The notes under the pieces: generated by a model | Database searches by the model: none | The model's input: the letters and a program-made list of their open reading frames with translations, nothing else | Told to the model about the DNA's origin: nothing | Shown here: positions 1-28,550 of the stretch, one piece after another | How the letters are laid out: each line of letters opens with the position of its first letter | How positions within the stretch are numbered: the stretch's first letter is position 1 | Made by a program: the position numbers and the translations under genes | Source of the DNA: Stramenopiles sp. TOSAG23-6 | Lineage: Eukaryota | Direction: 5' to 3' | NCBI GenBank assembly: GCA_900128565.1 | Contig: LT635944.1 | Coordinates: 1-35,463, forward strand | DNA: 35,463 nucleotides

Positions 1-910
1 GAATCTCCAGCCGACGAACCACTTGTAATCAATAAAGATCCACTCGCGCCATTTTCTGAATTTGCTGTCTTAAAAGAAGCTTTGCCACTCTCAAATCTAC
101 CTACACCACTCGACATACTTAAATCGCCACCACGAGATTTTTCACCTGCACTATCTCCAGCGGCAATAGCAATCAATCCACCATTACTGGAGCTGCTTGA
201 TCCACCTGATAAAAGTATGTCACCACCAAATCCAATCGAAGATGACCCACTTTTTAATGTAACTGTTCCAGTAGAACCCACGGATGAAGTTCCACTGCCA
301 AGGTTAAGAGATCCACTCACACCTGTACTGGAATTTCCAGTAGTAATATCTATTGAACCACTAGAATCCGCAGAACCAGTACCAATGCGAACTTCTCCAC
401 TTGATTTTGCTCCATCTCCTGAAGATATTGACACATCGCCACCATTAAACCCCTCTGCAAGTGCCGTGCCACCTGAAATATTTAAATGTCCACCATCAGA
501 AGATGTACTAGCCCCAACCGCAATCGATATATTCCCGGGTTTACGTGCGTCTCCCGTAGCAATGGAAATTTCACCGGAATTTCCGCTAGCTGCAGAACCA
601 GTAAAAAGTGAGATAGATCCACTTTCAGAATCTTTTTTTGTGATACTAGATGAAGCAACAATTACTGATCCACTTGAATGAGTACCTTCACCACTCAACA
701 CACCGACACTTCCTCCTGTTGATTCTGAAGATTTTGTGCTACCAGCAGAAATACTAATAGATCCTCCAGAACCATTTTTAGTATTTCCGACAGCAATAGA
801 AATCCCTCCTGCAGTACTACCCGAACTGCTACCAGATGCAATGGTCACATTTCCAGAATCTCCAGCCGACGAACCACTTGTAANCAATAAAGATCCACTC
901 GCGCCATTTT
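1..910. repeat. Near-exact ~55 bp direct repeat (1-55 and 856-910), 855 bp apart, inside the giant CDS
   Basis: gaatctccagccgacgaaccacttgtaa(t/n)caataaagatccactcgcgccatttt at both places. Confidence 0.9.
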
Positions 911-3900
911 TTGTATCTGAGGATAAAAATGAAATACCCCCACTTGCAACATCACCATCACCTGATTTAAAAAACAATGAACCACCTATTAAATCTTCGG
1001 ATATACCTGCAGCAAGCAAAATATCTCCACCCTTGCCAAATTTAGATTCTCCAACATCAAAATGGATTGTACCAGCAGATTTACCATCGCCAGTTGAAAC
1101 TGTGACATTTCCGGACTGGCCATTTTTTGAATCACCACTATGCAAACTAAGAGCACCGCTTGTATCAGTGGAATTGGAACTGCTCAAAATGATGGTACCA
1201 CTTTTTTTACTCCCGTAACCAGACAACATTTGAATATCGCCGCCTTCACCATCCGCGGCTAAGCTCCCTCCGGCAGTGAGAAATACATTACCACCACTGT
1301 ATGATCCCATTCCACCAGCAATTGCAATATCTCCTGCTGAACTCTCCTTAGATACCCCTGAAGAAATTAGTATACCACCCGATTCATTTTCAGCATTACC
1401 AGTCGACATCGTAATAATTCCGCTAGCATCAGCGTTATTTTCTGATGATAGTGTCTTGTGAGTTTGAACTACGATGTTTCCACTGGCATCAACACCTTTT
1501 CCACTACTCAGTGACAGAGAACCACCGTGCGATTTCCTGGAAGTGCTCTCGCCGGCTGCTAAAGTAATATTCCCACCTTTGCCTTTGTCACCCGAACCAA
1601 CTGACATAATCACATTTCCTCCTGTCCCCCCTTTTGCTGATCCACTTTTAATTGATACTATTCCACTCGAAGCATTGTTTGCATCACCACTTGCAATATT
1701 CACAGCACCGCTACTTCCATTTTTTGACGAACCACTACTGACAGAAATTGACCCAGACGAGGCCTTTGTAGACTTGGACATTGGGGTAGAGATGTAAATA
1801 TCACCACTTGAGTTACTTTCACTACTACCAGATCTGACAAATACGTTTCCGCCTCGTCCAGTGAAAGATTTACCACCAGAGATGGAAAAACTACCACCGG
1901 TGCCAGATGAGCTATTTCCAACTTCAATGGACACATGACCTGCTGTAGCTGCATCCCCGGAACTAATTTGAACGTTCCCTGAAACTCCATGGGTCACAGC
2001 GCCAGATGAAAAAGTAAGATCACCTGACTTTCCATATTGATGAAGGTCGCCGCTAGCGACTTCTACAGATCCGCTAGATGACTGACCTTGACCACTTAAT
2101 AAATGAATACCACCACCAATTCCATCTTTAGCCGTTGTAGATCCACCTGCGAGACGAACAAGTCCTCCATTTCCAGTTCCACTTTTCCCCGAAGACACAA
2201 GAATTGCCCCGCTATTTCCACGAACAGCATCACCAGATCGAACGGATACAGTCCCAGAATTGCCAGCGTCTGAGGCCCCAGTAGATATAACTGTTGATCC
2301 ACTATTACCTTCGGCAGACATACCAGTGGTGACAACAGAGTTTCCACTTTCGCCTTTATGTATACTCTTTCCACTTGTTATGCGTATCGATCCGCCAACA
2401 CCACCATCTTCGCGAGTTTCACCACCAACGATTGCAACAGAGCCTCCAGCACCAGTAGTTCCAGATCCAGCAGCAACAGCGATAGAACCACCAGCCCCTC
2501 CTTCAGCATTTCCGGTTCGAAGTGACAGTCCCCCACTTGATGAACTTTCGGAGTCACCACTCTTCAAGAAAATATCACCACTGGGGTCTAATTCACTTGA
2601 CCCTGATGCAACAACTATGCTGCCACTTACACCGACACCTTCAGTATCGGCGGTTGATAATATGACATCGCCAGAGGACGTACCTGTACTACTTCCTGAA
2701 CGCAACACCACACGACCACCGCTAGAGGAAACTGAAGAGCCAGCAACAAGTAAAGCATCCGTTGCTGTCAATTTCAACGATGCAGACGGTACCCCCGAAT
2801 TTGTAGAACCTACACCGACCAATACGTCGCCAACAACATGGTTTTGAGTATCACCAGAACCAATATATACAGAACCAGAAGTTGTAGATTGTGTATCACC
2901 TGAACGAAGAAGAAGTTTTCCACTTGTACCGTGACCTCGGTTGACACTTGCGGTCTCAATTGCAATTTCTCCACTCGGGCCATTTTCACTCACACCACTT
3001 TGCACTGTAATAGATCCACCAACGCTTGACGATGTTTCACCTGCCGAAAAAGATATACTTCCGCCCAATCCTTCACCGCTAGCACCTCCAATAAAATTCG
3101 TAGATCCTGCATTGCCTTCTGATGCATCTCCACTGCCTAGTGTAATATCTCCGCTGTCACTATTTTCTGAATGACCACTTTTTATAAAAATGCGCCCTGT
3201 TGCGCCACCCTCGCTTGAATCCCCAGTGCCGATTTCCAGTGCACCACTGTCACCACGGTCAGTAGCTGCAGACTTAACTGTAACATAACCACTTCTGCTT
3301 GCACCTCCACCGGAATGAAGTGTAACTGCGCCACCAACATGTCCACCAGACCCAGCGTGTATCTGAACATCACTGCCAGAAATTTCCTCACTATCGCCGC
3401 TTTGAAGATAAACAGATCCAGCGGAAACTGAATCACCGGAAGATATTGAAACCTTACCGGAACTCTGTTCGCTATCCCCAGTTGAGAGGGATAAGGAGCC
3501 ACTATTCAGAGATGACTTTGCAGTAGCAATTTCAGTGTCTCCGCTAATTCCCCCGACACTGCCCCCGGACAGAAGCTCAACATGACCACCGCTTACACCC
3601 CCCTCTCCAGCTTGAATCTTCACACTACCGCCATCTTTGCCAGCCGATCCTGCTACAAAAACCATATTTCCTGAATTTCCATTATCTGAATTACCAGTGA
3701 CAAATGTGATGTCGCCACTATTGCCAGTTTTCCCTTCGGAAGATTTGAATTGAATATCCCCACTTGATGCAGTTGAACTAGAACCGCTTTCTAATAATAC
3801 TAATCCGCCGATACCAGAACCCTTCGTGGCACCTGCTCGCATTACGATGTCACCACCATCCTCCTTTTCACTTGAACCAATGTTTACATTAATTGAACCT

Positions 3901-6900
3901 GCTTGGGAGTTCTTTGAGTGCCCAGTAGCAATCGAGATTGAACCAGACTCGTCACCAACGCCTGCTCCAGTACGTATTTGAATTCGACCAGAGCGTCCTT
4001 TTGAATTTCCGCCCATATACGATCCTGCATCAGCTGTGTTGATAGTAACGCCTCCACTTTCATCTGGCGTATTGGCACCAATTGTAAGACGACTTTGCTG
4101 CTCCTGAATAGCTGATAATAGATCTACACTAAGCTTTATTTTATTCACTTCGAAGAACTTTTCTCGATGAAAACCTTTATCTGGCAATGTAAAATTATCT
4201 GTGATATGAATATATTCAGGAAATATTTCATATACTTGCTGCGCAATAAAACCCCGCACGGGTCTGCCGACACCAACATCATCTGGCTTCAGATTCCGTA
4301 CTTTAGCCCAATCTTCAGTGTACCTATACTGCTTCATTTCAATCTGATTCAGTCGTTGTAAAACATCATTGTTATCCGAGTCCTCAATATCACGTTTAAT
4401 ACGCTTATCAGACGGTTGTAAAATAGTTGATGCCTGAACGGGAACATGGGCCAAAACTTTATCTTTCCACACGCGAAATACAGACGTACCTTCATCACCA
4501 CCCGAAGCAAGCTCGTGTTTAATAACAAATTCAGCGTCTTTATCTTTTAGATTAACAATAGCATCGAACCCTGTGTCAATTGTAATATCTTGTCCAGTGG
4601 CAGATGAAGCGTCAATAGCACCATCTGGGTTAATCGCAACTCGGGATGTCCCCGATGCATCCTTTAGAAGCACGCTACCACCTGAATACTTATCTGTTCC
4701 GCCACCAGGTTGAAGAATGACTGAGCCTCCTGCAGATGCGACTGAATTGCCTGCTTTCAGGTTGAGAGAACCGGCAACAGTTTTTGCATCACCGGTGGAT
4801 ACTTTCAAATCTCCAGAACGACCGCCAAGTGAATCGACAGTCTTAATTGTAATGTCCCCACTTGCTTTTGTTCCGATGCCACTAGCAATGTTGATACCAC
4901 CTCCAACTTTATCTTCTGCTGAAGTTTTACCCCCACTGATCTCAACCGTTTTACCATCGCCTTGTCCGGATTCTCCTACAATAATACTTATGGAACCTCC
5001 ACCAGCAGAGTTCGATGTCCCCGTTCCGACCAAAATATCACCCGACGATCCTTCTTTTGTGCCACCTGTTATTAGTTGGATATCTCCGCTATTTCCTATA
5101 TCTGTCGCTGCTGAAGCTATTTTTAAAAAGCCACTTCTAGCCATACCAGTACCAGTAGATATTTCGACACTTCCCCCTAAACTATCAGCTGCAGTTGTTG
5201 ACCCACTAGAAATTTTCACACTTCCACCATCAGCAGCATCACCAGAACCAACATTCATTGATATACCCCCACCTTCTCCACCGACAGCAGAGCCTGTAGA
5301 TATATTCACATTGCCTGAATTTCCTGTAGACGCTTTGCCTGTACCAATTGATATAGCACCACTGAGTGTACTATCAGCAGATATAATACTTATTACTCCG
5401 CTCGACTTACCCCCGCGACCACTTATCATGTCAATTTTTCCACCGTTAGCGGCACCAGATCCTGCAACGACAGATATTTCCGCACCATTACCCGTACCAC
5501 TGGAGCCAGCAGTTAAACTCACAGCGCCACCTGAACCTCCAGTACCTGATCCCGCTTTGAGTTTGATTGATCCAGATGCCCCCTCGCCTGTGTTAATAGT
5601 ACCAGTAGAAATGCTCAAATCACCACTATTTCCAATTGTTGCAGCATCTCCGGTGTTAACACTGATTGAACCGGATGTACCAGTTGAACCACTCCCAGTT
5701 TTAAGTGAAATTTTCCCACTCGTTGCTGAGTCTGGTGTTGCTAAATCAATTGATCCACTACTTACCCCACCCGAGCCACTTGAGAGGGAAACTAATCCAC
5801 CATCACCAATCTCTGCAATGGTGGTTTTACCCGCCGACATTACTATTTTACCACCAGGGCCCGTATTTCCAGTACCCACTGTAATTTCAATATTCCCACT
5901 AGCGCCACCTAATGATGCACCTGTGGAGATACTTACAGATCCCGTGGAACCTGTGGAAGAAGTTCCTGTATTTAACTTGATTCCACCAGTTAGAACAGAA
6001 TCAGCAGTTTTAACAACAATTGATCCACTTTTTGCACTTGTAGTACTCAGAGAAGATGCAGAACCCGAATTAATAATAATTTTACCCCCATTAACTTGAT
6101 CTGATTTGGTCGACCCAGCAATAATATTGATAGAGCCACCTTTTGCGACACTACTTTTTCCCACACCGATTTCAATGCCACCCGCTGACCCAAGAACAGC
6201 AGCACCAGTCAATAGAGAAATACTGCCAGTATTTCCAAGTGTTGAAGAACCTGTAGATAATTTGATTTGTCCACTTATTGTACCTGGAGATGTATCAATC
6301 TTAATATTTCCAGATGATTTTGCGATTTCATTTGTTGCAACACTGCCACTAGAAAGTGCAATATCGCCACCTAAACCAGATTTCGAAACACCCGATTTAA
6401 TTTTAACCTGTCCACCATTAACGGTATCACCAGATCCTACAACAATACTTATCCCGCCTCCTGTTCCCCCTTTAGACGTTCCAGTTTGAAATTGAATTCC
6501 GCCCGAGTTACCATCTGCTGTATTTCCAGTGCCTATAGTAACTGCTCCACTAGTACCCGTATTTTTTGCATTTTCAGTTTTAAGACTGAAGTCACCAGTT
6601 TTTCCTTCTTCCCCTGTAGAACCACCAGTTACCATCCTGACCATACCCCCAGTCGCACTATCTGCAGTTGCATCCCCGCTGGAAATGACAAAGTCGCCAC
6701 CTTTAGCAGATTCTGACTCGCCAACATTTAATTTGATACTTCCACTAGGTCCAGTTTTTGATGAAGATGTGGTCACTGAGATTTCCCCAGAACTACCAGT
6801 GGAAGATGTTCCTGTTTTTACCAAAATTCCACCGCTGATTGATTCTTTACCTGAGTTTGGAGTTGAAATAACGATGTTACCGGATGATCCGTTTTCACTA

Positions 6901-9900
6901 AGCCCACTTATCAAATTGATTTTCCCACCGCTTTGAGTTTCTCCCAACGTTTTCCCTGCTATTATTTCAATGTTACCACCTTTACCGACACCATTACCTA
7001 CATTTAGAACTATGTCACCGCCTCGACCTGTAATAGCACGACCAGATGTCAAAGCTATACCACCAGATGTACTGGCATTTGATGTACCTGTTGCTAATAA
7101 TAAGGTGCCACTGACACCCGCTTCGCCAGAGTTAGCTGTCAGTAACCGTATATCCCCAGAAGAAGTTAAAGAACTGTATCCTGAGACAATGTCTACAATC
7201 CCTCCACTTTTAGAAGTTGCATCTGCAGTTGTATTACCCGCAGTGAAAAACAAATTGCCTGATGCACCTTCACTGCTACTTCCTACACGAAGAAAAATGT
7301 CACCGGCACTACCTCCAAGCGATTGACCAGTTTCAAAAGAAATTGACCCGCTATTTGCAACGGCAGCATTACCCGAAGAGACAACAATTGCCCCACTAGA
7401 CCCGGTAATACCACCGTCAGCAGTAGACACCCCAAACATTCCACTTGATGTGGAATCTCCTTTTCCTGTTACTAAAGAAATTTTTCCACCGGAACCCTTA
7501 CCTGTAACATTACCAGCCTCAACTGCAATGTCACCACCGGAAGCTGCTTTGTTTTCAGTAGAACCACTTGCAATCCTAATGTTACCTGCGCCTTTTTTGG
7601 CAGAGCCCGTCGACAAAATAAATGACCCAGATGCACCGGCGGAAGAGGTTCCTGTTCGAAGAGACATATTACCACTGGTACCTTCGGTTCCTGCGTTTGC
7701 TGTAAACATATCAATATCACCAGATGATGTTTTGCTGAAACCAGAGGTTATTAGAAGTTTCCCACCATCACCTTCAGATGGACTGACATCACCTGCTTTT
7801 AAAACAATATCCCCACCTGTTGCTTTTTCGCTTGCATCTGAAAGATCAGATGTCCCGACGTTGATAGAAATTGACCCCCCACCTCTACCTACAGAATTCC
7901 CTGTCTTTAATGAAATACCACCTGACTCCCCTGCCATACTAGCACCTGTGGAAAGGGCAAGTAGTCCTGACATTCCATTTGCTGCTTTCCCCGCTGATGC
8001 TGTACTTATATGAATTTTCCCTGAAGCTTTTGTAGCAGATGTGCCCGATGACACTATAACACTCCCTCCTGTGCTATCAGCTTTGGAATTAGTGGCTTCC
8101 CCAGCAGTAAATTTAATATTACCCCCAACACTCTTAGATGCCGACCCTACTGACAATTTAATGACACCACCGCTACCACCAGTACTGTCTCCGGTACTAA
8201 TACGAATTTCACCAGACCCACCGTTAGCTGACACACCAGTGGAAATACCAATACTACCAGATACCCCACTTACACCAGCCTTCGCAGTCCCAATATTAAT
8301 GTTTCCACTTGAAGTACCAACTGAAAACCCACTTTTAATGTCTACATTACCACCTGTACCAACTATCCCAGATGTTCCCAATACGTCACCAGCTTGAACA
8401 CCGACGTGTCCACCTTCTCCAACTGTTCCATCCCCAACTTTAATCTGTACATAGCCTGCTTGACCGACGGTTGCCGTTCCACTTTGTAATATTACATTTC
8501 CTGAGTTTCCATGATGAGTTGTTCCGGACGCCAAAAGTAAGGGCCCAGAGTGGCCCACTTTTCCAGAATTTGCAGTTGTGATCGAGACAGAACCTGATAT
8601 AGCATCCTCGCCGAGACCTTGACCCGAACGTATGCGAGTGGCCCCACCAACACCTCCAACAGAATGACCATGATGTGTTACACCAGCTTCAATTTTGATA
8701 GCACCACCAGCACCACCGTCACCTTCGCCCACCATAATTTTTATTCCCCCACCCGATCCACCTGTAGCTTTTCCAGTTTGTATTCGAATTTCCCCAGTCG
8801 TGCCAGATGAAGAGGTTCCAGTCGAAATAGCTACACCTCCACTGACACCAGAAATACCAGCATTACTGGTACCCAAGTTAAAATTTCCGCTAGACGTAGC
8901 AATCCCAGCTCCTGTCTTTATTTCTACCTTACCACCTGATCCTGTCGAAGCAGTTTCTAGCGCAGTTCCGGCATTGATATTGATATCTCCACCAACACCG
9001 GTGTCACTGGATCCTACTGACATTTGGATATTTCCGCTATTACCACCATTAGAAGTACCAGTTGAAATTTGGATTTCACCTGAAGAACCTGCTGTCGCAT
9101 CACCTGTCGAAAAGGCAATATTACCTGAAATGCCGCTTGTACCAGCATCCGCGGTTACAACAGAAATCTGACCCGAAGATGTTTGAGTTGAAGAACCACT
9201 CATAATAAATATTTTACCACCAGTTGAATCACTAACTGACGATACGTTTCCTGCCATCATATTAATTACCCCACCTATTCCATTACTGCTATCACCAACT
9301 TCGAGCCTTATGCCACCTGCGCGCCCTTTTTCGGAGTCTCCAGTTTTAAGGGATACAAAACCAGTGTTGCCATTTTCTTCCGATGCAGTACCACTTGATA
9401 TTTCTATAGCCCCACTAACACCATTTTTACCTGCGTTTGCTGAGGTGAGCAGTACACTTCCACTAGACTCTTCTTTGCTAATTCCAGTCTTCAAGAGTAT
9501 ACCCCCTCCATTGGCATTTGAAGAGTCGCCACCAGTTAATGAAACATGACCACCATCACCACCAACACCTTTACCGCTAACAAGACTAATTGATCCACCA
9601 GAACCTTTTGTAGCGGAACCAGTACGGATATCTAATTCACCCGAGTTTCCATCTGTAGCCGATCCAGTACTAACTGAAATTGCACCCGAAACTCCTGTAT
9701 TTCCAGCATCCGGAGTTGAAATATTGATATTACCACTCGAAGTTGCGGTTCCTTTACCAGATTGAATATTCACGGACCCACCACTTTCATCTGAGGAATC
9801 ACCAGCATTGACAGAAACTCGCCCACCGACGACGGTGTCTCCTTTACCCACTAAAATGTTGATTTTACCGCCGCGCCCCGATTCAGTATTTCCTGTTCTG

Positions 9901-12900
9901 ATGGATATTTCGCCTGAATCTCCTTTGGTTGCGACACCCGTAGAGAGCGCAATAGAACCACTAACACCTTGGCTGCCTGCATTTTCTGAAGCAAGAACAA
10001 TATTACCACTACTCGTAGTGCTACCAAACCCAGATTTGATAAAAATAGAGCCACCTGACCCTTTTGATTCTGCCCCAGCAGTAATAACAATTCGCCCACC
10101 TGAGTTATCATCAGGTAGTGATGAACTTTCACCAGCAACAACTTCAATATCACCAGCACTACTGCCTGACGCGGCACCACTCTTCAACAATATTGAACCA
10201 CTACTGCCAGTATTTGCTGCCCCTGTATGCACTGTAATACTACCCGACCCCGAGGAGACGCGAGTGGCAGTTGCAGTCTCCAGTAAAAGTTCTCCAGATG
10301 TTGACTTATCTCCGGTGACTTTTCCTGTGCTTACAGAAATAGCACCCCCACTACCTGACGCGGCTGAAGTGAGACCTGCTTTGAGTGTGATATGACCACC
10401 GTTTGCACTACTGCCTTCTCCTACGATAATATTTATAGCACCTGCTGCTCCAACAAATTCTGCTTTCCCTGTGGAAATATCCAAATTCCCAGAATTCCCG
10501 GCGGTTGCCAATCCAGTTTTGATGGATGCAGACCCAGTTGATCCGTCACTTATCGCATCTGATGTAGCAATCAAAAGTGTCCCGCTAGACCCCTTCAACG
10601 GACTAAGGGATTTTCCTGTTGTAATGGATACATCACCTCCAGTTTTGCCAGTTGATGTGGTATTGCCAGCCTCAATAAATATAGAGCCACCTACTCCAGA
10701 ATTCCCCTGCCCAACTTCAAGTTTAATATCACCTCCTGCTCCATTAATAGCATTGCCAGTCCGAACTACAATATCCCCTGAGCTACCAGAGCTTGATGTT
10801 CCAGTGCGTACGTCAATAAGCCCAGTATTTCCTTCTGTGCCACCCTTCGAAGTGGAAACGTAGAGGGAACCACTTGAAGTTTGTGCACTCATTCCTGTCT
10901 TGAGACTGACACTACCACCTCCGAAACCGTCAGATGTATCCCCTGCCTGCATATTTATTGATCCACCTTCGCCAACTGTTCCAGACCCTACTACCATTGA
11001 CAAACTACCACCTTGGCCACTTGTAGCAGCACCAGTGGAAATCGCAAGGTATCCACTATTTCCCGTATTAGAAGTACCCGAGGACACATATATATTTCCA
11101 GATTTCATAGTTGATTTGCTTGCATCTATATCATTACCCGTTCCAATAAATACACTACCCGAGGAACCAACTGAAGACAAACCTGTTATCAAAGAGATTT
11201 CCCCAGATGTCCCGTCACTTGTTGTTCCGGTCGATATCTCAATTTTCCCGCTGACACCTGATACTCCAGCATTCTGTGACATTATGTGAATATTACCACT
11301 TGAAGATAGAAGTGATTTCCCTGATTCAATATGAATTAAACCCCCAGTGGCTTGAGTGCTTTCGGCCGTTGTTTTACCAGCTATAAGCTCGATATTACCT
11401 CCGGTTCCAGTATCACCCTCTCCAACAGTTACCTCAATATCGCCAGCATTACCACCTGTTGCTGTACCTGTCCATATTTTGAGATCACCAGTATCACCGT
11501 CTGTTGTGTTGCCTGTGAAGACATTAACATTGCCACTATCTCCTGGTTCTGTCAATGAACTACTACCCAAGTCGAACCCATTTTTAGCTTCCATTGAAAC
11601 AAATGTACTACTCAATTCAATTGTGGCTTTATCGTCATAATTTGCTGTGAGATATATATCACCCGCGTCCAAGGCAACTGCACCGCGTCTGCCATTTGAC
11701 ACACCATCTTTTTCGAGTTTCGGTGCCCCCCCAGTTATCATAGTAATGTTTCCTGAGTTTCCTCTGGTCGATTTACCTGTATCAAGCGAAATTGCACCAC
11801 TTACTCCTTTAGAACCAGCCGAATCTGTCTGGAGAGCAATACGCCCAGATGATGTGAATTGACTATTACCCGAGGAAAATAAAATTGACCCACCTGTCGA
11901 CAAAGATCCTGCAATCGTGCCACCAGCCTCAATTGCAACATTGCCACCCTTACCAACTCCAGATTTTCCTACTTGAAGAGATATTGCGCCACCTTGACCC
12001 TGTGTAGATCCACCAGTCTGTAGCAAGATCAAACCTGATGAACCCGCTTCTGAATCCCCCGTTGATAATTTAATCATACCTGTTCGGCCAAAGCTTGCAG
12101 TGCCAGTTTCAAGAGTGACATTTCCTGAAATTCCTTCAATGCCAGCATTCATTGATCTGATATCGAGATGACCTGAGGAAGTCTCCTGAGAAAAACCTGT
12201 GGCGATATTAATATGACCACCGCGTTCATCAGAGGTATTACCAGCTAAAATTTTGATGGCGCCACCATTTCCACGGGCCCCACTTCCAACAAGGATGTCA
12301 ATACCACCTCCACTTCCTTTATCAGAATCTCCTGTTGCAAGAAGAATACTACCTGAAGTTCCACGACTGGCAGTTCCAGTCTTCACATAAATTTCACCCG
12401 ATACCCCATTTATCCCTGAATTTGATGTAAAAATTTCAATATTGCCCGATGACGTACGTTCACTATGCCCACTCTCTACGGAAATAGATCCACCTGAAAA
12501 TGAACCTGTAATGATATCACCTGCTCTCAGTCTTATATTCCCACCAACACCAGAATCTCCTATGCCAGATATAATATTAATATTACCGCCACTTCCTCCT
12601 ACGGCTTTTCCAGAAGCTACAGTAATCTGACCAGAGTTTCCACGCGTTGATTTACCACTTGAAATTTGAATAGCACCAGAGACACCAGAAACACCAGCAT
12701 CCACAGACGCAATATGAATCATACCGGATGATGTATGTTTGCCAAAACCACTTGACATCTTGATATGTCCCCCAGAACCACCTGAAAGTAAGGTTTGGGC
12801 CTCACCTGCCGTCATAATAATGTCACCCCCAGGCCCAGAATTCCCCATTCCAACCAGAACTTTAAAATCACCACCGCTACCTCCTGTTGAAGCACCAGTA

Positions 12901-15900
12901 GTAATAATTATTTGACCAGAATTTCCTTCACTAGACGTCCCTGTGTCTAATGTAATATTACCACTAGTCCCTGATTCTCCAGCATTAGAAGTGATCATCT
13001 TCATGTTACCAGAATCAAAAAAATCACTGTAACCAGACGATAACTTTACATCTCCACCTTTAACCCCACGGTCTTGGTTTTCATCTAAAGATCGCCCGGC
13101 AACAACTTTCACATCCCCCCCATTAAAAGTATCCCCTGTTCCAACACTAATGCTAATATCACCACCGGAACCTCCCTTTGCAGTACCTGTATTCACGGAA
13201 AACTTCCCAGAGGAGCCAGCAGATGATGTACCAGTCGTTATTAGAGCATTGCCAGACACGCCTTCTTCGCCTGCATTATCAGTTTGGAGGATCATATTTC
13301 CACTGTGGAAACCACGACTAAATCCTGTTTTCACAGTAACGGATCCCCCCAGAACGTCAGCAGTAGTCTGATCTTCCGTGAGACCTGCAGTGAAATGAAT
13401 ATCTCCACCATTTCCAAGTTGCCCTGTTCCAACTTGCACTTCAATATTACCACCATGTCCTTTTTTGGCACTACCAGTTTCCAAAACTATAGCACCCGAT
13501 TCAACTCCTGTAGCATCGCCTGTGTTTAGACGAACATCCCCTGAAACACCCTTTGCACCAGAGTCGGCAGTATGAAGAATGATATTGCCACTAGATGTTT
13601 GGGTTGATTTACCTGTAATAAGTTCTATCAATCCACCCGAAACTTTACCCGAGCCAAGTGTATCACCAGCCGTCATTTGTATCACCCCCCCAGATTTCGC
13701 CAAGCCAGTTCCTACTTTGACCAATACATCTCCTCCATGACCCGCGACAGAATCGCCGGTTTTTATAGCAAATTGTCCAGATCTGCCGTATTGGGCCGTA
13801 CCCGTTGTTACTTGTACGGATCCAGAGACACCAGCAGCAGCTGAATTAGCAGTCGATAGAAATATTTGACCAGATGAGGTTGTTGCGCTTGCACCAGAAA
13901 CGAGGCTAATTGACCCCCCTGATGATGTTGCAGCAATACCTGCAATCATAGATATATCACCACCTCTATCTCCAGCACCTTCCCCGTATGCTTTACCACC
14001 TGTGAATTCAATATCACCCCCCTTTCCCCCACTTTTCGAGTTTTTGGAGCGACCATCGCCTCCGGTAATTGAAACAATACCCCCTGCTTTACTATCATGC
14101 GTGGTGTTACCAGCATACAACAGGATATCTCCACCAGGCCCTGTGTTTCCATTGCCAACAGTAACCATGACAGAGCCACCTCTACCATTTATAGCCTCTC
14201 CCGTTGTTAGGTACATCGACCCCGAGTCTCCTGCCGTTGAATTACCGGTTGTGAAGAGCATTGCTCCTGATACACCTGCGTTTCCAGCATTGGGAGTATC
14301 AATGATGAAATTTCCACTCGAAGTGGGAGTACTTCTTCCTGTTTTCATAAGAATAAACCCACCAGACCCAGAATCTGTGGTATCGCCAGCATAGAAGAGT
14401 ATATCACCACCGGATTGTTTATTTCCTTCACCAACTTTGACTTCAAAACGACCACCATGACCCCCAGATGCATTCCCTGTGGTTAGAATGAAATTCCCCG
14501 ACGTACCTTTACTTGATGTACCTGTACCAAGTTCAATGTAGCCACTGACACCCGCCAAACCTGCATTAGGTGTATCCAATTTAATACTTCCTGATGTAGT
14601 GGCCAGACCTTGACCAGTACTCATAGTAATTTTACCGCCAGTTCCACCGGCAGAGTCACCACCAATTATTTCAATGTTACCTCCATTATCATCCAACTTT
14701 GTCCCAGAACCATTTCCACCACTGATAATAATGTCACCACCACCGCTATACCCCCCCGTACCTTTTCCAGACCCACCCGTTAGATATACTACACCTCCGC
14801 TATATCCTGATTTTGAAGATTTTATAGTCGAATCCCCAGCTTTGATATTCACGGGGCTTCCGTTGCCACCATTACCAGATCCAACCATAAGCTCAATATC
14901 ACCGGCGTATTCTTTTTTTGATGATCCGGTCACCATATGAATGAAACCAGTGGAGTTTGATTTCTTTACACTGGCATTTCCTGTCGTAAAATTCATATAC
15001 CCACTGTTGCCATTGGCTCCAGCTGCGGCAGTAATAAGTGTAATATCACCCGATGATGTTGATTCTGAGTATCCCGAAGTCAGTGTAATGTTTCCACCAC
15101 GACCTGATGCGGCATCTCCACCTGTTAAAAGTATATCCCCCCCTGTGTTATAATTGCTTAAACCTTTTGCTTCTCCGCCGATGACAACGACATTACCACC
15201 AGTACCTCCATTTGACGAACTTTTACTCGATCCTTCTCCAGCACTTATCTGAACTTCACCACCGGAAGAATCATCATCAGATGTTAGACCGGCGCTTAAT
15301 ACAACATTTCCTCCATTCCCAGTATTTCCATTTCCAACAAGCATATCTATATGCCCACCACGCCCACCTTCAGCATTGCCTGTGGTAATTTTGACAAGAC
15401 CCGAGTTTCCTTTTGTTGATTTTCCTGTGTGAAATTCTAAAACCCCGCTAACACCAGCTTTCCCAGCATTAGCAGTATTAACAATGAAGTCCCCAGAGGA
15501 CCGCATTTGACTATAACCAGTTACAAGATTTACACTACCCCCACTAATCTTTGCATTTGTTGTTGTTCCTGCTTCTACCAGTATTTTCCCTCCAATGCCA
15601 GTTGTACCTGATCCAACTTTAAGCGAAATACTTCCACCCTGACCTAATGTTGCAGTACCAGTAGTTACTGTAATATGACCACTTTTTCCAGATGTTGTTG
15701 TTCCGGTGCTAATATCTATCTGCCCGGATACACCAGATTGACCTGCATTTGCAGTCCATAATTCTACATGACCTGAGGAACTGGCAATTCCTGAACCACT
15801 ATGCATGATCAGGGACCCACCACTACCTTTGCGCGACCAACCACCTGTAAGCTCAAGGTTTCCTCCTCTATCTAATATAGGAGAACCACCCATGGCACGA

Positions 15901-18900
15901 CCCCCAGTAATAACAATAGCACCACCATCACCGCCATTAATATTCGACTCTGAGGATCCTTCACCACCAGTCATCACAATTTTACCACCACTCATATATG
16001 CAGCGGTTGAATTCCCTGCATTTACAATGACATCACCTCCATTGAAAGTGTCACCAGTACCAACATACATCTCAATATTACCACCTGCACCACCTTTGGC
16101 ATCCCCAGAACGAAAAGAAAAGGAACCAGAATTTCCGGCACTGGTAGTACCTGTATTCAGTAGTATACTTCCGGAAATTCCAGATTCACCAGCATTGGGA
16201 GTATTGAGGTATACATTTCCAGAAGAAGAAAATGAAGAGTATCCACTATCAAGATTTATATATCCTCCGGAAGCTCGGTATGTTGTGTCTCCTGCGGAGA
16301 GTTTTAGGTAACCACCTGAACCAAAATCACCTTCACCTACCTTAATATCTATATATCCACCATTACCCCCAGTAGAAACACCTGATTTAAGATCTAAATA
16401 ACCAGAATTTCCAGAACTTGAAGTACCCGAAGCCAGTGTAATTGAACCTGATACCCCCCTAGTTCCACCATTTGCTGTGTTCAGTACAAACCTACCAGAC
16501 GAGGTACCAACAGATTGTCCAGTAGAAAATAATATTGAGCCACCAAAGCCCATAAACGCAGAGCCACCTGTGATTTCTACATTCCCCCCGTTATCTTCTG
16601 ACGCAGCTCCCATCGCTTCACCACCTCGGATCTCAATCATACCCCCATTGCCACCATCATGACTATGTGCAGATGAACCTTCGCCAGCTAAAATAGACAC
16701 CTTACCACCTACTGCTGCATTAGCAGATGTGCGACCACCAAAAAAGAAAAGATCGCCACCATTTTTATAATCTCCATCACCAACAGCAATAGTGATGGTG
16801 CCTCCTGGGCCAGATGTAGTTTTTCCCGTTTGAAGAGTCATTGAACCAGAAGAACCCGCAGTTGAGGTTCCAGTATATAGTGACATATCACCGCTAGTTC
16901 CACTTTCTCCTGCATTACTTGTAGACAAATTTACCGAACCACTAGAGCGATCACGACTAGTTCCACTTCTTAGAACAACAGATCCTCCAACTCCACCGAT
17001 TGCAGCACCACCAACAACCTCTACATTTCCAGCACTATCACCGGCAAATTCACCTTTTGACTTACCACCGGTAAGTCGTACTACACCACCATTTCCACCG
17101 TCACCAGCGTCAGTATTTGTACCCTCACCAGCATTGATGAAAACAGCACCACCAACAGCAGATTTCGCGAGCGTTGCACCAGCGTTAAGGGACACATCTC
17201 CACCATCACCTGTATCGCCAACCCCAACCATGATATCAATCGAACCCCCTGATCCACCTCTAGCATATCCAGTTTCGAAAGTTATACCCCCAGATGAACC
17301 ACCGGAAGATGATCCTGTATTAAGGGCAATATCACCACTTACACCATAAACACCAGCATCCATCGACATAAGCATAATATTCCCGGATGATGTACTAGTT
17401 CCTTCACCTGAGCGTAATGTTAATGTTCCACCAGTTGCGGTTGCCGACTTTCCACCATCCATGGAAATGTCTCCACCAAAGCCAACCTCGGCCCCACCAC
17501 CCTGCAACATAATGTTACCCCCTTCACCGGCACCAGAATGCGAAGAAGAAGTTCCACCATGTAATTGTACTGTTCCACCACTACCAGCATATGAAGCATC
17601 AGAATCACCGCCATATAATTGGACTTTTCCTCCTGACTTGAAGTCATCTGTTGTCTTACCAGCATTGATAGAAACTTGTCCACCATCCCCACTATCACCA
17701 TCTCCAACGGCAAGCAAAATCTTACCCCCAGTACCACTTTTGGCAGTCCCGGTTGAGATGCTTAAAGCGCCTGATATACCACCAGATGATGTACCAGATC
17801 CAATGACCACCTTCCCCGAAACGCCTGATGTTCCAGCATTAACACTACTAATATGGACTTCTCCACTGGACGATACAGAACTTGCACCGGACTGAAGTTC
17901 TAACGAACCCCCCGTTCCAGATACGGCACTTGTGGAGCCTGCTTTAAATCTCACTGATGATCCCGTCTTGGTATTGCTAGATCCTCCACTAATTTCGATA
18001 GTACCGGCAGCCCCGTCTATAGCATTCCCTGACATTAGGGAAATATTACCAGTAGATCCTGATTTTGAATCACCAGTTACCATTGACAGAGATCCAGTAG
18101 AGCCAGATGTATCTGCTGGAGCAGAGCCTATTGCCACATCTCCAGATCTAATTCCTTGGGACGCACCTGACATCATTTTTAGCGAACCACCGTCACCATT
18201 CACCGCAGCGCCACCGGATACTATGACTGTACCACCTGTATCCAATGTACCAAGTCCTTTGCTGCCCCCCCCACTTATATTTATTTCCCCACCACTCCCT
18301 CCATTATCGTTATCTTCACTATTTCCATCACCACCAGTGATATTAATTTTACCACCTGTGCTACCAGATGCACTAGTATCTCCTGCACCGAGGGTTAGCA
18401 TGCCCCCAAGATGGCCTGACATACTGGTTCCTACTTTGAGATCAATACCCCCAGCAGTTCCCGCGGATGTACCTGTTTTAAGCGATATAGCACCTGAGGT
18501 ACCCTCAGTCGATGTACCAGTCCAAAGGGAAACATCACCACTGGAACCTTGGGTACCACCATTTGACGAGCTTACCTGGATTTCACCAGAATGTTTACTA
18601 TCGGAGCTACCTGATTTTACAGATACATTGCCACCTGAATGACTTGGACTTGAGGTTGCTCCAGCAGAAATTTTGATTTCACCACCTTGAACAGCATTCC
18701 CGGACCCGACTTTTACACTGATGTTGCCACCATGCCCACCAGCGGATTCACCTGTTGTTAAAAAGAGAGATCCTGTATCACCTGCTGAGGATGCACCTGA
18801 TGCAATAGACACGTCACCACTACTACCACTACTACCAGCTTTTGCAGACATAATATTGACATCACCACTAGAGGAAAGTTCAGAAATTCCACTAACAAGC

Positions 18901-19775: not shown

Positions 19776-20284
19776 GTTCAATGGAATTATTCGTGAGCTC
19801 GCGTTATTCTCTAAGCTGCAAACACTAAAAAGATGCAACAGTGCTTTATCTGAGTCCCTGGATAATTTCTTGGAATGAATAAAATTGCACACAATGGGAC
19901 AACAGCTGTATGTAAGAGTTGTACGCGGATCCTTTTCACAGTTACAAAGGGATACCGTCTTTTTGGTCGTACGAAATTTTATACCTAATCTAGGATCTTT
20001 GTTTTACGTTGGAAATTGAATTTACTTTCTAAATTTCTTGGTTTTTCGTGATAAAATTGCTAAACCGACATTTTCCAGTACCGGGTAATCAACTTCGAAT
20101 TTTTTTTTTGCTTGCCAGACAAAGAAAAAGAAAAAGAGAAGAGAACTCGAAAATTTAATCAACTTTTGAACTGCTACATGCATAGATGCATGTTACCATT
20201 TTCGAGTTTCAAGTTTTAATTGAAAATCAATAACCCGGATGAGGTAATCGAACTTTTTCTAGTTGATACTTTTGTGGAGGCGCA

Positions 20285-22793: not shown

Positions 22794-23870
22794 ATGTCTT
22801 ATCGTGGACAAGGAGAGTATGGCAACCCCGTAAGAGATGTAGTAGGCTATGGTGCCAACCCACCAAATCCAAGGTGGCCGAATAACGCAAAGGTTGCGTT
22901 ACAAATAGTTGTGAATTACGAAGAAGGTGGTGAACACTGTTTGTTACATGGAGATGGAAAATCTGAGTGGTTATTGAGTGAAATTGTGGGCGCTAAACCA
23001 TATCCCGGACAGCGTCATATAAATATAGAGACTCTGTACAATTATGGATCACGCGCTGGTTTCTGGCGCATTTTTAGAATACTAAAGGAACGAAATCTTC
23101 GTGCGACTGTTTATGCTGTTGGCATGGCTCTGGAGCGCAACCCTGCTGCTGGTCGGGCAATGGTTGATGCGGACTGGGAAGTTGCATCTCATGGTTACAG
23201 ATGGATTGATTATCAAAATGTGGACCAGAAAACTGAACGAGAGCATATTCGAAAAACAGTTGAAATTCATCACCGAGTGCTTGGCCAAAGAGTTTTAGGG
23301 CTTGTATGTTTACAGCATCAATTTTAAATTTATTTATTTTTCATACGAANTTTGTANCTNACNAAAAAAAANTTNAAAATNTTTNCCAAAATACTTTACC
23401 AAGGTAAACCTAACAAAAATACTCGTAAGTTGTGTGTTGAAGAAGGCGGGTTTTTATATGACTCTGATGCATATGACGATGATCTTCCGTATTGGAATAC
23501 GGAGTATGGACGCCCACATTTGGTTATTCCGTATACACTAAGTGAAAATGACATGAAGTTTGTTTCACCGGGTGGTTTTAATAATGGAAGTGACTTTTTT
23601 GGATACTTAAAAGACAACCTGGATTTTCTCATTGCAGAAGGACGCTCTGGTCGTCCTGTTATGATGACTGTAGGTTTGCATGGCAGAGTTGTTGGTAGAC
23701 CAGGGCGTGCAGCTGCTTTAGCTAAATTTTTAGATTATGCAATGTCTTTTGATAAAGATGTTTGGATATGCCGTAGGGATGAAATAGCAAGACACTGGTA
23801 TCGCTATCACTGGCCAGAAGGATATGGTAAAGCTCCACCTTACGCAACAGGTGTATTTAGTAAACTATGA
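22794..23870 (+). CDS. puuE: PuuE-type allantoinase (polysaccharide deacetylase / CE4 fold), 2 exons: 22794-23303 and 23397-23870 (~327 aa)
   Basis: RDVVGYG, WPNNAKVALQIVVNYEEGGE, ETLYNYGSRAGFWRI, MALERNP, WEVASHGYRWIDY, GGFLYDSDAYDDDLPYW, HLVIPYTL..NDMKF, MMTVGLHGRVVGRPGR and DVWICRRDEIARHW are PuuE-family motifs. Confidence 0.9.
23304..23396 (+). mobile_element. Introner-like intron 3 (93 nt, GT...TT) in puuE
   Basis: gggcTT|gtatgttt...tcatacgaantttgtanctnac...ccaaaatac TT|taccaa. Contains an in-frame TAA (23325-23327). Removal restores GL-YQGKPNKNTRKL. Confidence 0.75.
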
Positions 23871-25652: not shown

Positions 25653-28550
25653 TCACCAGTTAACAAGTTTTTTCTTACCACTTTTACTACTATTTGATCT
25701 TCTTATTTCGCGGTCTAAGAAACTGCTTGTGACGCGTATTTTTTTCTTGCTAGTAGAGGTGTAAGTTTTTCTCTCGCATTGATCAATTGGTTTGTTTTCT
25801 ACCACAGGGCTAGTATAAGATTTTGCAAATAATCCCAAAAAGACGTCACCTAAATTCGATTGCATACTATTCGTATTATCTTCGTCGCCGTGTATCGTTT
25901 GATTCTCTTCAATTAGACTAGTGTCATTTTCTACTATGTTGTTGCTATCAATGGTTTTATCTTTAACCGTTAAATTCTTTTTACGTTTCCCTCGTGAAAA
26001 GGTGTTTGGATGACTGCTACTTTTTACAAAACCACTACTAACACGAACCTTCTTTTTACTAAATTGGTGGATCTTTTTCTTCTTCTTGTGTACTTTTTTA
26101 AAAGGTTCAGCTGTACTTGGTCGGACTCCGCGTATTCCATGGACATACTTTTTCTTCCGTACAGACATTAAATTTCTTGAATTCAAATTTAAATTACTAT
26201 CAGTACCAGTCTTATTGTCTGCAGTATCATCTGGATTCCATTGTCTTCTACTTCCTGAAGCACGATAAGAAGTTTGAAGTCCTTCAATGCCATGTCTATC
26301 AATATGATGTTTTTTTATCTTCAGTTTTGTGCTAAATTTATCATCAGACTGAAAATACTGTCGCGCTTCTCCCATAAAATTTTCAGTCATAGGACGGGGC
26401 ATTGAAGTCGCATAATTAGAATCATTGTGGCTTTCTTCAAAAGATGCGGGATAACTATACGTGTTATCACTTTGTCCTCCAATGTATTGAAATCCTTTAC
26501 TGTTGGGTATCGTCGGACTGATACCTTTGAATGCCCGATTTTTAGGTTTTGTTGAAACTTCTCTTTTTTTTTTCCGTTGATATTTAGTTACATCCTTAGT
26601 TGAATGTGACTCCTCATGTAGAACAACAGCCTTTTTTCTTGTTTTTGTCGATGGTGGTGTATTCATTATCTTTCCGGTTCGTGTGCTTTTTGCAGATGGA
26701 GGCCGTGCTTGCTGTGCACGTTTACTCCTTGTTTGGCGATTTTGTGGTGAGAGCCTTGTTCCTCGGTCAACTGTAGCGGTACCAGTTCTTGAGATTTTAG
26801 ACACAAAAGATGTATTACATTGCAATCCGTTGTCAATACTGAATGTACAGTCTTCGGTAAGACTCTCTTTTGTCTCTTGCATATGGGGTATTTTTTTAAG
26901 TTCAGGCTCTAATGATAGTTCTACCTCTGGTTTTATGGCCACTTCTGGCATACTCTGAGTAGAAATATTACTTTGCCATACATCCCAATTAATGTTTTTG
27001 TTGTTTTGTCTCTTACTTTTGTTATTAACTTGATCTAGGTGATTGTTGGAGCTCCCCATGCTAATGAAACGGGCTAAAATGCCTTCAGAGTCCGAACTTT
27101 TGTGACTAATTCCAGCGGAAGCAAAACGTTGAACAAAATCGCTAGTTAAATCATCTAAATTTCTTGTTCTGCTATAATCAACAATATTCGAATCATTAGA
27201 ATCTGTAGAATAAGAGTCATGGTCCGATCCACTTAAATATGAATCTGGGTCACTACTAAATATATCAGCATATTGTGGACCATAACCTGTAGTTGCCCCC
27301 AGACCACGTAATTCTGGGCGCTCGTGTGTGCTGTATGATTTTCTTTGACTTGGATATACATAAGAATCAGTGTTTGTGTATAGAATTTCTGCATCACTAT
27401 CACTCGTTGTGGAAACGGGTGAGAAAATATTATCCCCTTCTAAATTTCTATTTATAGAGTGTTCCATAGATATTTTTGTTTTGTCATCCATTGACAGACC
27501 TATGGCTTTAAAGCCAATAATCGGTGATTCAATCGGTCGAGGCGATGAAGGAACCGAATCTGGAAATGTGTCGAATGATTCTGTTGGTTTAATTTTAGAT
27601 GCAGGAAGTTGAAGATTCAAAGACTCCTGTGGGGGTCGATGACGAGATGGTGGGCGTCTTCTAGTTGAATCTTGTCGGCGGCGGTGTATATTCGGGCTTG
27701 GCATATACTCAATGCGAAACATCTCGGCGTCCCAATCTGCTTCTTCTGCATCAATTTCTATAACTCTTTCTACGTCCCTATCTTTCTCTCTTTGGGTTAT
27801 CTTGCTCTTTTTACTTTTAATACCACTCTTCAATCCAAATGATCCTCGACGCTCTTGTGTAAAACGCTTTCTCGTTTTTTCATAGGACTTTACGAACTTT
27901 CGTTGTCTAAACTTGGGGGAATTGTTCTTCTGATCCCACCCATATACACTTACAGGTTTCGCATCCACTACATGTGACTTTTGGAATGTTGCATTGTTGT
28001 TGTTAGATTTTTGAGGAGAGTGAACATTTCGGCGAGTGGGTCTTGGTTTACTTGTTGAAGATGATTTATCCAAGTGTGTTGGAAAAGCATCCCTTTGGCG
28101 AGACGGAGGCCGAGTAGTCCACTGTACTCTTTTATTATTTTCTAAAGGTTTCATTGACATTTGAGTCTCTACTCCTATATCTATACAACTGTTGCTTCCA
28201 GTGGCAATCGATACAGAGATATCTGAGTTATTTCTGTGACTTATATCGCTCTCTAAAATAACATCAGTTGTCTCTTCAGCGGCCTTTTGATTTTCTGTCA
28301 ATAAACCACGAACACGATATACAGTTTCTTCGTCGCGCATTGAGGGTGGTCTAGAATGACTGTCGTCTTGGTTGTTTACCTCCTCTTGGTCAAAATGCCA
28401 ATTTTTAGACTCGTTATTGACTAAATTTTGCTGCCTTAAAGATGCATTGAGAGCAGCAAGAGCGCTGGGGTCAGCGTGTTTCAAATACCCATTAGGGCGC
28501 ATCCCACCTGAATTTGTTGGCGCAGTCCACGGAGGTGATACAGACTGCAT
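25653..28550 (-). CDS. Hypothetical 965-aa basic, Ser/Lys/Arg-rich, largely disordered protein
   Basis: Long intact ORF with low-complexity composition and recurring RPPS/RPST motifs. No domain recognised. Confidence 0.75.
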   Translation of the reverse strand: MQSVSPPWTAPTNSGGMRPNGYLKHADPSALAALNASLRQQNLVNNESKNWHFDQEEVNNQDDSHSRPPSMRDEETVYRVRGLLTENQKAAEETTDVILESDISHRNNSDISVSIATGSNSCIDIGVETQMSMKPLENNKRVQWTTRPPSRQRDAFPTHLDKSSSTSKPRPTRRNVHSPQKSNNNNATFQKSHVVDAKPVSVYGWDQKNNSPKFRQRKFVKSYEKTRKRFTQERRGSFGLKSGIKSKKSKITQREKDRDVERVIEIDAEEADWDAEMFRIEYMPSPNIHRRRQDSTRRRPPSRHRPPQESLNLQLPASKIKPTESFDTFPDSVPSSPRPIESPIIGFKAIGLSMDDKTKISMEHSINRNLEGDNIFSPVSTTSDSDAEILYTNTDSYVYPSQRKSYSTHERPELRGLGATTGYGPQYADIFSSDPDSYLSGSDHDSYSTDSNDSNIVDYSRTRNLDDLTSDFVQRFASAGISHKSSDSEGILARFISMGSSNNHLDQVNNKSKRQNNKNINWDVWQSNISTQSMPEVAIKPEVELSLEPELKKIPHMQETKESLTEDCTFSIDNGLQCNTSFVSKISRTGTATVDRGTRLSPQNRQTRSKRAQQARPPSAKSTRTGKIMNTPPSTKTRKKAVVLHEESHSTKDVTKYQRKKKREVSTKPKNRAFKGISPTIPNSKGFQYIGGQSDNTYSYPASFEESHNDSNYATSMPRPMTENFMGEARQYFQSDDKFSTKLKIKKHHIDRHGIEGLQTSYRASGSRRQWNPDDTADNKTGTDSNLNLNSRNLMSVRKKKYVHGIRGVRPSTAEPFKKVHKKKKKIHQFSKKKVRVSSGFVKSSSHPNTFSRGKRKKNLTVKDKTIDSNNIVENDTSLIEENQTIHGDEDNTNSMQSNLGDVFLGLFAKSYTSPVVENKPIDQCERKTYTSTSKKKIRVTSSFLDREIRRSNSSKSGKKKLVNW

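Follow-up and report, generated by a model that had tools for sequence, protein, structure and literature searches.

Self-cleavage by an ICA (Peptidase_S74) domain has been described for MYRF and for the tailspike and fibre proteins of phages. According to the accessible text of PMC8326128, MyRF is cut between P586 and S587, and the substitutions S587A and K592A abolish cleavage. In the same text Y615 and Y617 lie at the cleavage site and the double mutant blocks cleavage, mutants in R590, I637, Q639, F666 and V669 are impaired or miscut, and K671 is found near the reaction centre. An intact Ser-Lys dyad in a folded trimer cleaves without a cofactor, both in MyRF (PMC8326128) and in phage proteins (PMC3742443, in the part available). 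As far as the accessible sections of PMC12220804 go, S74 also ends large modular fibre proteins of up to 3.9k residues in polinton-like viruses of protists, and in these viral proteins, whose genes lie in a viral context, the single C-terminal copy comes after laminin-G, collagen-like or adenovirus-fibre modules. In the literature that we searched, which was available in part, MYRF and its orthologues were the sole cellular eukaryotic use of the phage ICA domain, and secreted proteins of cellular eukaryotes with internal ICA domains were not found described, supplementary tables being outside the scope of the search. Here we describe such a domain inside a giant ORF (open reading frame) of contig LT635944.1 from Stramenopiles sp. 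TOSAG23-6, analyzed over its whole length of 35,463 nucleotides (the window).

The ORF is the largest feature of the window, with no stop across 6,630 codons (positions 3..19892, minus strand); it is open at its 3' end, as the gene runs off the start of the window. Residues are counted from the GTG at 19892. An ICA/Peptidase_S74 domain occupies residues 5158-5271 (4080..4421, minus strand) and was recognized by Pfam, by sequence match to the PDB, by its structural model and by Foldseek. The Pfam profile PF13884 matched with an E-value of 3e-13 (50.3 bits vs. a cut-off of 22) and its first position falls on Ser5161; on a 190-residue piece the match was 7.4e-14 (52.2 bits). When the PDB was searched with phmmer, the MyRF ICA domain 7dc3 was the best match (1.1e-8; query 153-273 vs. 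chain 39-151). These matches are far beyond chance and confirm that the domain is genuine. An earlier reading of the letters (the original prediction) had placed it at 4086-4420, a span that does cover the domain and is one base short at its upper end, and the S74 match that it had proposed to look for was thus obtained.

The domain consists of an S74 core (residues 5161-5227), an F-x-VNK element (5246-5251) and a C-terminal helix (5251-5268). The motif LQPSDKRIK starts at residue 5158 (nucleotide 4421 downward), which is residue 5119 when counted from Met40, as compared to approximately 5122 in the original prediction. It is followed by YRY (5189), GFIAQQVYEIFPE (5214), VNK (5249) and AIQE (5261), each a single copy in the protein, and Gly/Ser repeats restart at about residue 5272, so that the motifs, the intact Ser and Lys and the return to repeats were all found as had been read. 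The predicted scissile bond Pro5160|Ser5161 (4410..4415, minus strand), with Ser5161 (codon 4410-4412) as the putative nucleophile, aligns with P586|S587 of MyRF. Lys5166 (4395..4397, minus strand), the putative general base of the dyad, aligns with MyRF K592, and the counterparts of the two residues in phage endoNF are S911 and K916. Each of the functional positions named above for MyRF has the identical residue in the window protein, namely P5160|S5161, R5164, K5166, Y5189, Y5191, I5216, Q5218, F5246, V5249 and K5251. This supports an internal ICA/S74 domain with an intact dyad and accessory residues, which is predicted to be catalytically competent. No second ICA copy was found within the window, either by BLAST of the domain against the whole protein or with the family hidden Markov model (HMM) on six-frame translations.

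The fold was modelled by AlphaFold on a 45-row alignment of relatives, which gave a pLDDT of 90.7 and a pTM of 0.76. When the model was compared with the PDB by Foldseek, three chains of 7dc3 ranked first (E 7e-8 to 1.5e-7, target TM 0.69-0.76), with a root-mean-square deviation of 2.3-2.4 Å; the best chain superposed at 2.3 Å over 126 columns with a TM of 0.76. The next matches were the phage ICA structures 3gud, 4uw8 and 3gw6; all of the top ten were ICA domains and no other match was significant. A trimer predicted from three copies of the 190-residue piece scored an ipSAE of 0.91 (best control 0.00), which speaks for likeness only and not for binding; in the benchmark, 21 of 30 proteins known from structures as one-chain pairs reached this mark, compared with none of 23 known as single chains. 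The contact agreement between runs was at least 96% and the partner pLDDT at least 85. In the trimer model K5166 of one copy contacts Y5189 of another, and L5158 of one copy lies against E5248-N5250 of another, matching the inter-subunit arrangement described for MyRF. As in MYRF, the cleavage strand is predicted to lie in the pocket of the neighbouring chain.

By sequence as well as by fold, the MyRF structure 7dc3 is thus the closest solved relative, and in MYRF/MrfA and the window protein alike the ICA domain is internal. Common to MYRF and the window protein are the P|S site, S-x4-K, the Arg, Y-x-Y, I-A-Q, F-x-VNK and the C-terminal helix. The original prediction had read the PSD, YRY and VNK elements as closer to MYRF than to phage versions. 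For VNK and for the overall similarity this held, whereas P|S-D and Y-x-Y, along with I-A-Q, are the rule also in the weaker, mostly fibre-end copies that we sampled. Membership of the MYRF family was considered and rejected, as there is no NDT80 domain and no MYRF_ICA match, and the domain falls outside the MYRF clade. NDT80/PhoG was absent from the four pieces scanned with Pfam, and there is no other non-repeat stretch to house it. The profile MYRF_ICA (PF13887), which the original prediction had proposed to search with alongside S74, was not listed at E<=10, a negative that has to be read with the HMMER filters in mind, since they drop most weak matches. Within the window, the 1,356 residues downstream of the ICA domain have no membrane or hydrophobic segment, and the part of them that was scanned has neither MRF_C2 nor any other Pfam family. 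MYRF is a type-II membrane protein, whereas the window protein would be secreted via a predicted signal peptide, and its ICA domain, unlike that of MYRF, is flanked by Gly/Ser repeats on both sides.

The C-terminal chaperones of phage tailspikes and fibres (endoNF, 3gw6; GA-1, 3gud; T5 pb1, 4uw8) belong to the same Pfam family, have the dyad and share the fold class with the window domain (Foldseek ranks 4-10). As in these phage proteins, the window ICA domain comes after a long stalk of repeats that is presumably trimeric. In the phage proteins the domain stands at the end of the chain and is discarded, whereas in the window protein no fewer than 1,356 residues, made up of Gly/Ser repeats, follow it in frame, and it would cap the downstream piece. 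The window protein also resembles the fibres of polinton-like and giant viruses, in that these are very large modular S74 proteins from the marine and freshwater protist world. Judged against the accessible descriptions of the viral fibres, it differs in its cellular context and codon use, in the internal position of the domain and in the kind of repeats.

The layout of the protein around the domain can be followed along the minus strand. The GTG at 19892 opens the ORF, and the likely start is Met40 at nucleotide 19775. Residues 40-72 (19677..19775) form a predicted signal peptide (MVFSKRASLK, a hydrophobic core, then VTAQ) with a cleavage site assigned by eye; in a Kyte-Doolittle scan residues 48-66 were the sole hydrophobic 19-mer of the whole protein. 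A Cys-rich N-terminal region at residues ~74-176 (19365..19673) carries one or more PSI (plexin-repeat) modules (PF01437, 6.8e-7, 30 bits vs. a cut-off of 23.1). A sub-threshold match to Phage_spike_2 in the same head (19365-19775; E 0.062, 14.1 bits vs. a cut-off of 25), which overlaps the PSI match and extends slightly past it, is probably noise from the Cys/Gly-rich composition.

The head is followed by Gly/Ser/Thr-rich repeats at residues ~210-5060 (4713..19265) with a 15-residue period, SGxIxLxTGxSxxGx (autocorrelation peak 0.215 at lag 15; G 23%, S 16%). A non-repeat neck at residues 5061-5157 (4422..4712) lies directly N-terminal of the predicted scissile bond. This neck is kept in relatives, many of which match from query residue 1-20 onward; in the model it contains beta strands (model residues 22-48), and model residues 1-48 are part of the predicted trimer interface. 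Beyond the ICA domain, Ser/Gly-rich repeats of the same period run from residue 5272 to at least 6630 (3..4079; autocorrelation 0.23 at lag 15; S 22%, G 22%). A scan for G+S+T+A in 60-residue windows found poor stretches only at residues 1 to ~270 and ~5091-5300 (poor windows starting at 1-201 and 5091-5241). Pfam recognized no family in a 1,000-residue sample of the N-terminal repeats or in the last 1,200 residues (nucleotides 3-3602), and a 600-residue repeat sample had no relative in the PDB by sequence (best E 0.86). Tandem Repeats Finder reported nothing at a score of 200 or more over nucleotides 1-20000; the repeats are degenerate at the DNA level. As a lead only, a repeat sample matched unnamed clusters in the ESM Atlas, mostly eukaryotic and of low recognition (949), in which Chlorophyta and Oomycota were commonest among the few labelled members. 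The source organism was characterised as an AT-rich, intron-poor marine microbial eukaryote, and we consider it probable that most of a giant fibre-like protein, secreted by such an organism, is encoded in the window.

Relatives were searched with HMMER in a library of 1.84 billion representatives, which gave 292 matches at E<=1e-3, 100 at <=1e-10 and 21 at <=1e-30. The 62 listed matches of at least 300 residues were scanned with Pfam. Among the 44 best-ranked of these, 37 had S74 alone, seven had no Pfam family and none had a MYRF domain. True MYRFs begin at about E 2e-8 downward (13 with S74 and MYRF_ICA, 12 of them also with NDT80), and amid them are five other types: collagen with S74, bactofilin-like with S74, a double S74 and two with S74 alone. 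A quick maximum-likelihood tree was made from 123 columns and 71 rows, namely the window copy, 40 family members, 13 MYRFs and 17 others; the 40 are a random sample of the 92 that filled 115 columns or more, shorter rows being excluded. All 41 family rows, the window copy included, fell on one side of a branch (SH-aLRT 94), and the window copy branches first. The MYRFs formed another clan together with three unlabelled fragments (SH-aLRT 95), and the fork that joins the groups had a support of only 42. The phylogeny that the original prediction had called for therefore puts the domain in a clade of its own and not inside that of MYRF. The giant protein belongs to a separate family, which is apparently eukaryotic and mostly aquatic.

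The architecture of this family resembles that of the window protein. The nearest protein (P0002, 1,767 residues, unnamed) has three S74 domains within Gly/Ser repeats, reading SSDKRIK, TADERIK and PDDTRIK. Metagenome contigs were searched with an alignment of 11 rows. This gave 289 pattern matches, 124 of them relatives, and 80 loci were kept (L001-L080). With the family HMM, L001-L041 scored 67-181 bits, most over approximately the whole model, vs. 17-61 bits for L042-L080, where the match is often near the end of the ORF. In L044, L047 and L048, and also in L053, L067, L075, L076 and L077, two to four adjacent ORFs each have a weak C-terminal S74 match (20-46 bits); these runs look like fibre gene arrays of phages or giant viruses, outside the family described here.

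For the 37 non-duplicate family-level copies in these loci, at least 100 residues follow the domain in the same ORF in 23 cases, and in all 23 this part is Gly/Ser-rich. Gly/Ser-rich ORFs run for kilobases on both sides of the domain in L002, L005, L006, L010 and L016; in L005 and L002 they run on for kilobases past the S74 exon, and in L010 and L016 such pieces fill the entire 20-kb loci. L010-L017 have two intact copies 1,913 residues apart in a single exon of 2,758-2,804 residues, and in L001 an ORF that spans 3,902 residues or more contains three. The first and third copies of L001 are identical and 1,180 residues apart, pointing to a duplication of recent date or to an assembly repeat. 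Family members thus carry one to three internal ICA domains within Gly/Ser repeats, and a copy tends to follow each long repeat block. By analogy, a further ICA copy past the window is plausible. A Cys-rich head recurs on the same strand, 6.3-7.6 kb upstream of S74, in L027, L025, L004 and L008 (30-44% identity), and because of this recurrence in four loci we take head, long repeats, ICA domain and more repeats to be a conserved layout. No segment of the family fragments was credible as membrane-spanning in a Kyte-Doolittle scan, the few hits lying in seemingly out-of-frame tails. When giant relatives of 3,646-11,603 residues were compared with query residues 5060-5300, none of the 1,172 candidates scored, which is no evidence that the protein stands alone.

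Based on these likenesses we propose the following path. After translocation into the endoplasmic reticulum, three chains would associate via the ICA domain, with the C-terminal helix (5251-5268) as the trimer core and the P5160|S5161 strand of each chain in the pocket of its neighbour. The trimer would set the register for folding of the neck and of the long upstream repeats. Once it had formed, Ser5161, activated by Lys5166, would attack the Pro5160-Ser5161 bond. The products would be an N-terminal trimer of ~5,090 residues per chain (from the signal-peptide cut to P5160) and a C-terminal piece of at least 1,470 residues that starts at S5161 with SDKRIK and retains the ICA domain as its N-terminal cap. 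The fragment sizes agree with those of the original prediction, which had also pictured a programmed event outside the cell. That part we do not follow: because the known systems cut after folding without a cofactor, cleavage would, by analogy with MYRF and the phage proteins, be automatic after trimer folding, and we expect it in the secretory pathway and not as a regulated step outside the cell.

The reading that we favour is that the chain is cut at P5160|S5161 while the trimer folds, and the balance of the evidence leans towards it, although several points weigh on the other side. Cleavage and trimerisation of the window protein are both predictions, from the residues and from the models, and the trimer score may be the model's memory of 7dc3, as that like complex is already solved. 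The fibre nature of the repeats is suggested by their composition and periodicity, and the RNA-library contigs described below are no proof of transcription. The gene ends past the window, and anchoring or shedding of the C-terminal piece is conjecture. A further point is the state of the dyad in the family. Drawn from 160 non-identical family copies, the Ser column holds Ser in 114 of 141 aligned copies (Ala in 20) and the Lys column Lys in 128 of 143, and the 45-row alignment keeps Ser in 34 and Lys in 38 rows. In the metagenome loci both residues are kept in 35 of the 37 family-level copies, a count that is biased upward as one of the two scan patterns held PSDxRIK. In the weaker group both residues are kept in 59 of 59 copies and in MYRF in 13 of 13, so that, within the sample, this family alone has copies in which catalytic residues are lost. 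The catalytic Ser is missing in about 19% of its aligned copies, which have Ala, Asp, Glu or Val instead; because of this the domain would have a role that is independent of cleavage, most simply, we argue, trimer nucleation and the keeping of register. Possibly, then, the ICA domain of the window protein is a non-cleaving structural node that trimerises and sets the repeat register, or it cuts and the pieces stay bound. Two of the three domains of P0002 (SSD, TAD and PDD) are without Ser and the middle copy of L001 (2786-2904 of its ORF) has Ala and Gln at the dyad positions, between two copies with PSD, so that together with the 19% these copies show the domain kept where it is unable to cut. 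That repeats start directly after the ICA C-terminal helix would also suit such a node. Against it, the dyad and all accessory residues of the window copy are intact, most family copies retain Ser and Lys, and an intact dyad self-cleaves without a cofactor in the systems cited above. We therefore hold a node of this kind to be a real but clearly lesser possibility than cleavage.

A viral origin deserves mention, as S74 ends the fibres of polinton-like viruses and is mentioned in giant-virus papers, so far as their accessible parts go. The gene would then be a fibre gene of a giant or polinton-like virus, integrated or co-assembled, and S74 the fibre-end chaperone of a virion. The GC content of the ORF (~45%) is indeed above that of its flanks (36-39%), but this excess sits in codon positions 1 and 2 and stems from Gly, Ala and Ser, whereas GC3 (0.26 vs. 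0.26-0.31 in five neighbouring genes) and synonymous codon choices are similar to those of the neighbours. The neighbours are cellular eukaryotic genes with no visible introns (LMBR1-like, polysaccharide deacetylase, C-N hydrolase and two EF-hand proteins), the protein has a predicted signal peptide and PSI modules, and the domain is internal and not terminal. A tblastn search of 50,697 phage records gave no match, sequence similarity being too low, and none of 18 pattern matches in IMG/VR was a relative, a scope limited by the pattern. On these grounds we regard viral origin as very improbable. Even less credence is given to the idea that the internal position is an assembly artefact or a decaying pseudogene, with the downstream repeats coming from another gene. 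It could draw on the single Ns in the window, one of them at 884 inside the ORF, and on the similarity of nucleotides 1-55 to 856-910. However, there is no stop in the 6,630 codons, relatives have the same layout, and an independent DNA metagenome contig of 12,790 nucleotides, obtained in another study, aligns collinearly to 3589-16378 without gaps and differs by 35 substitutions.

The DNA of the window is present in seawater metagenomes and in RNA libraries, and contigs of the latter cover the ORF. Contigs of at least 99% identity from RNA library X6 fell in 30 of 30 bins and those from X7 (same sample) in 29 of 30, and a second RNA study gave two 151-nucleotide contigs, at 4264-4413 and 4424-4574. 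The RNA-library contigs have no splice joints in or near the ICA domain. At the start of the window, nucleotides 1-55 are 98% identical to 856-910, one RNA-library contig joins 855 back to 1, and a 7,584-nucleotide DNA metagenome contig ends at 832-882, beyond which it diverges from the window sequence. This points to a tandem unit of ~855 nucleotides or a collapsed repeat at 1-910, and to a gene that extends well past the window. One DNA metagenome contig skips 9,412 nucleotides (6317-15730), with a shorter side of only 20 nucleotides; it may reflect an allele of the population with a shorter repeat region, or a contig misjoined inside the repeats.

Among the neighbouring genes, the polysaccharide-deacetylase ORF (22794-23385 region) has 177 residues, covers profile positions 13-98 of 124 and ends immediately ahead of several clustered single Ns (23350-23385); poor sequence there has probably truncated the gene. 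A 965-residue ORF at 25653-28550 (minus strand) has no Pfam family at E<=0.1. The EF-hand proteins, of 1,246 residues at 28855-32595 (plus strand) and of 832 residues at 32704-35202 (minus strand), are convergent, tail to tail, and the larger of them has a sub-threshold match to DUF5770 (20.5 bits vs. a cut-off of 25).

Going further, the family could be one of self-processing cell-surface polyproteins in which ICA domains act as punctuation, and it could be the source or sister of the ICA domain of MYRF; this combined proposal is tentative, and we think it rather doubtful as a whole. Each ICA copy would nucleate trimeric folding of the repeats upstream of it and then cut if its dyad is kept, giving several trimeric fibre segments, and copies without the dyad would leave segments joined. 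If the secreted-fibre family, rather than phage directly, were the source or sister of the MYRF domain, the eukaryotic capture would predate MYRF. The family can also serve as outgroup when the origin of the ICA domain in MYRF is studied.

Taken together, the giant-fibre family is a second cellular use of the ICA domain, apparently eukaryotic and widespread, with 100 representative clusters at E<=1e-10. It provides a candidate mechanism for the cellular folding and processing of trimeric repeats thousands of residues long, and its natural series of copies with and without the dyad could separate the chaperone role of the domain from its protease role. For the marine protists themselves, it represents a class of very large proteins, located at the surface or extracellular, that is so far uncharacterised.

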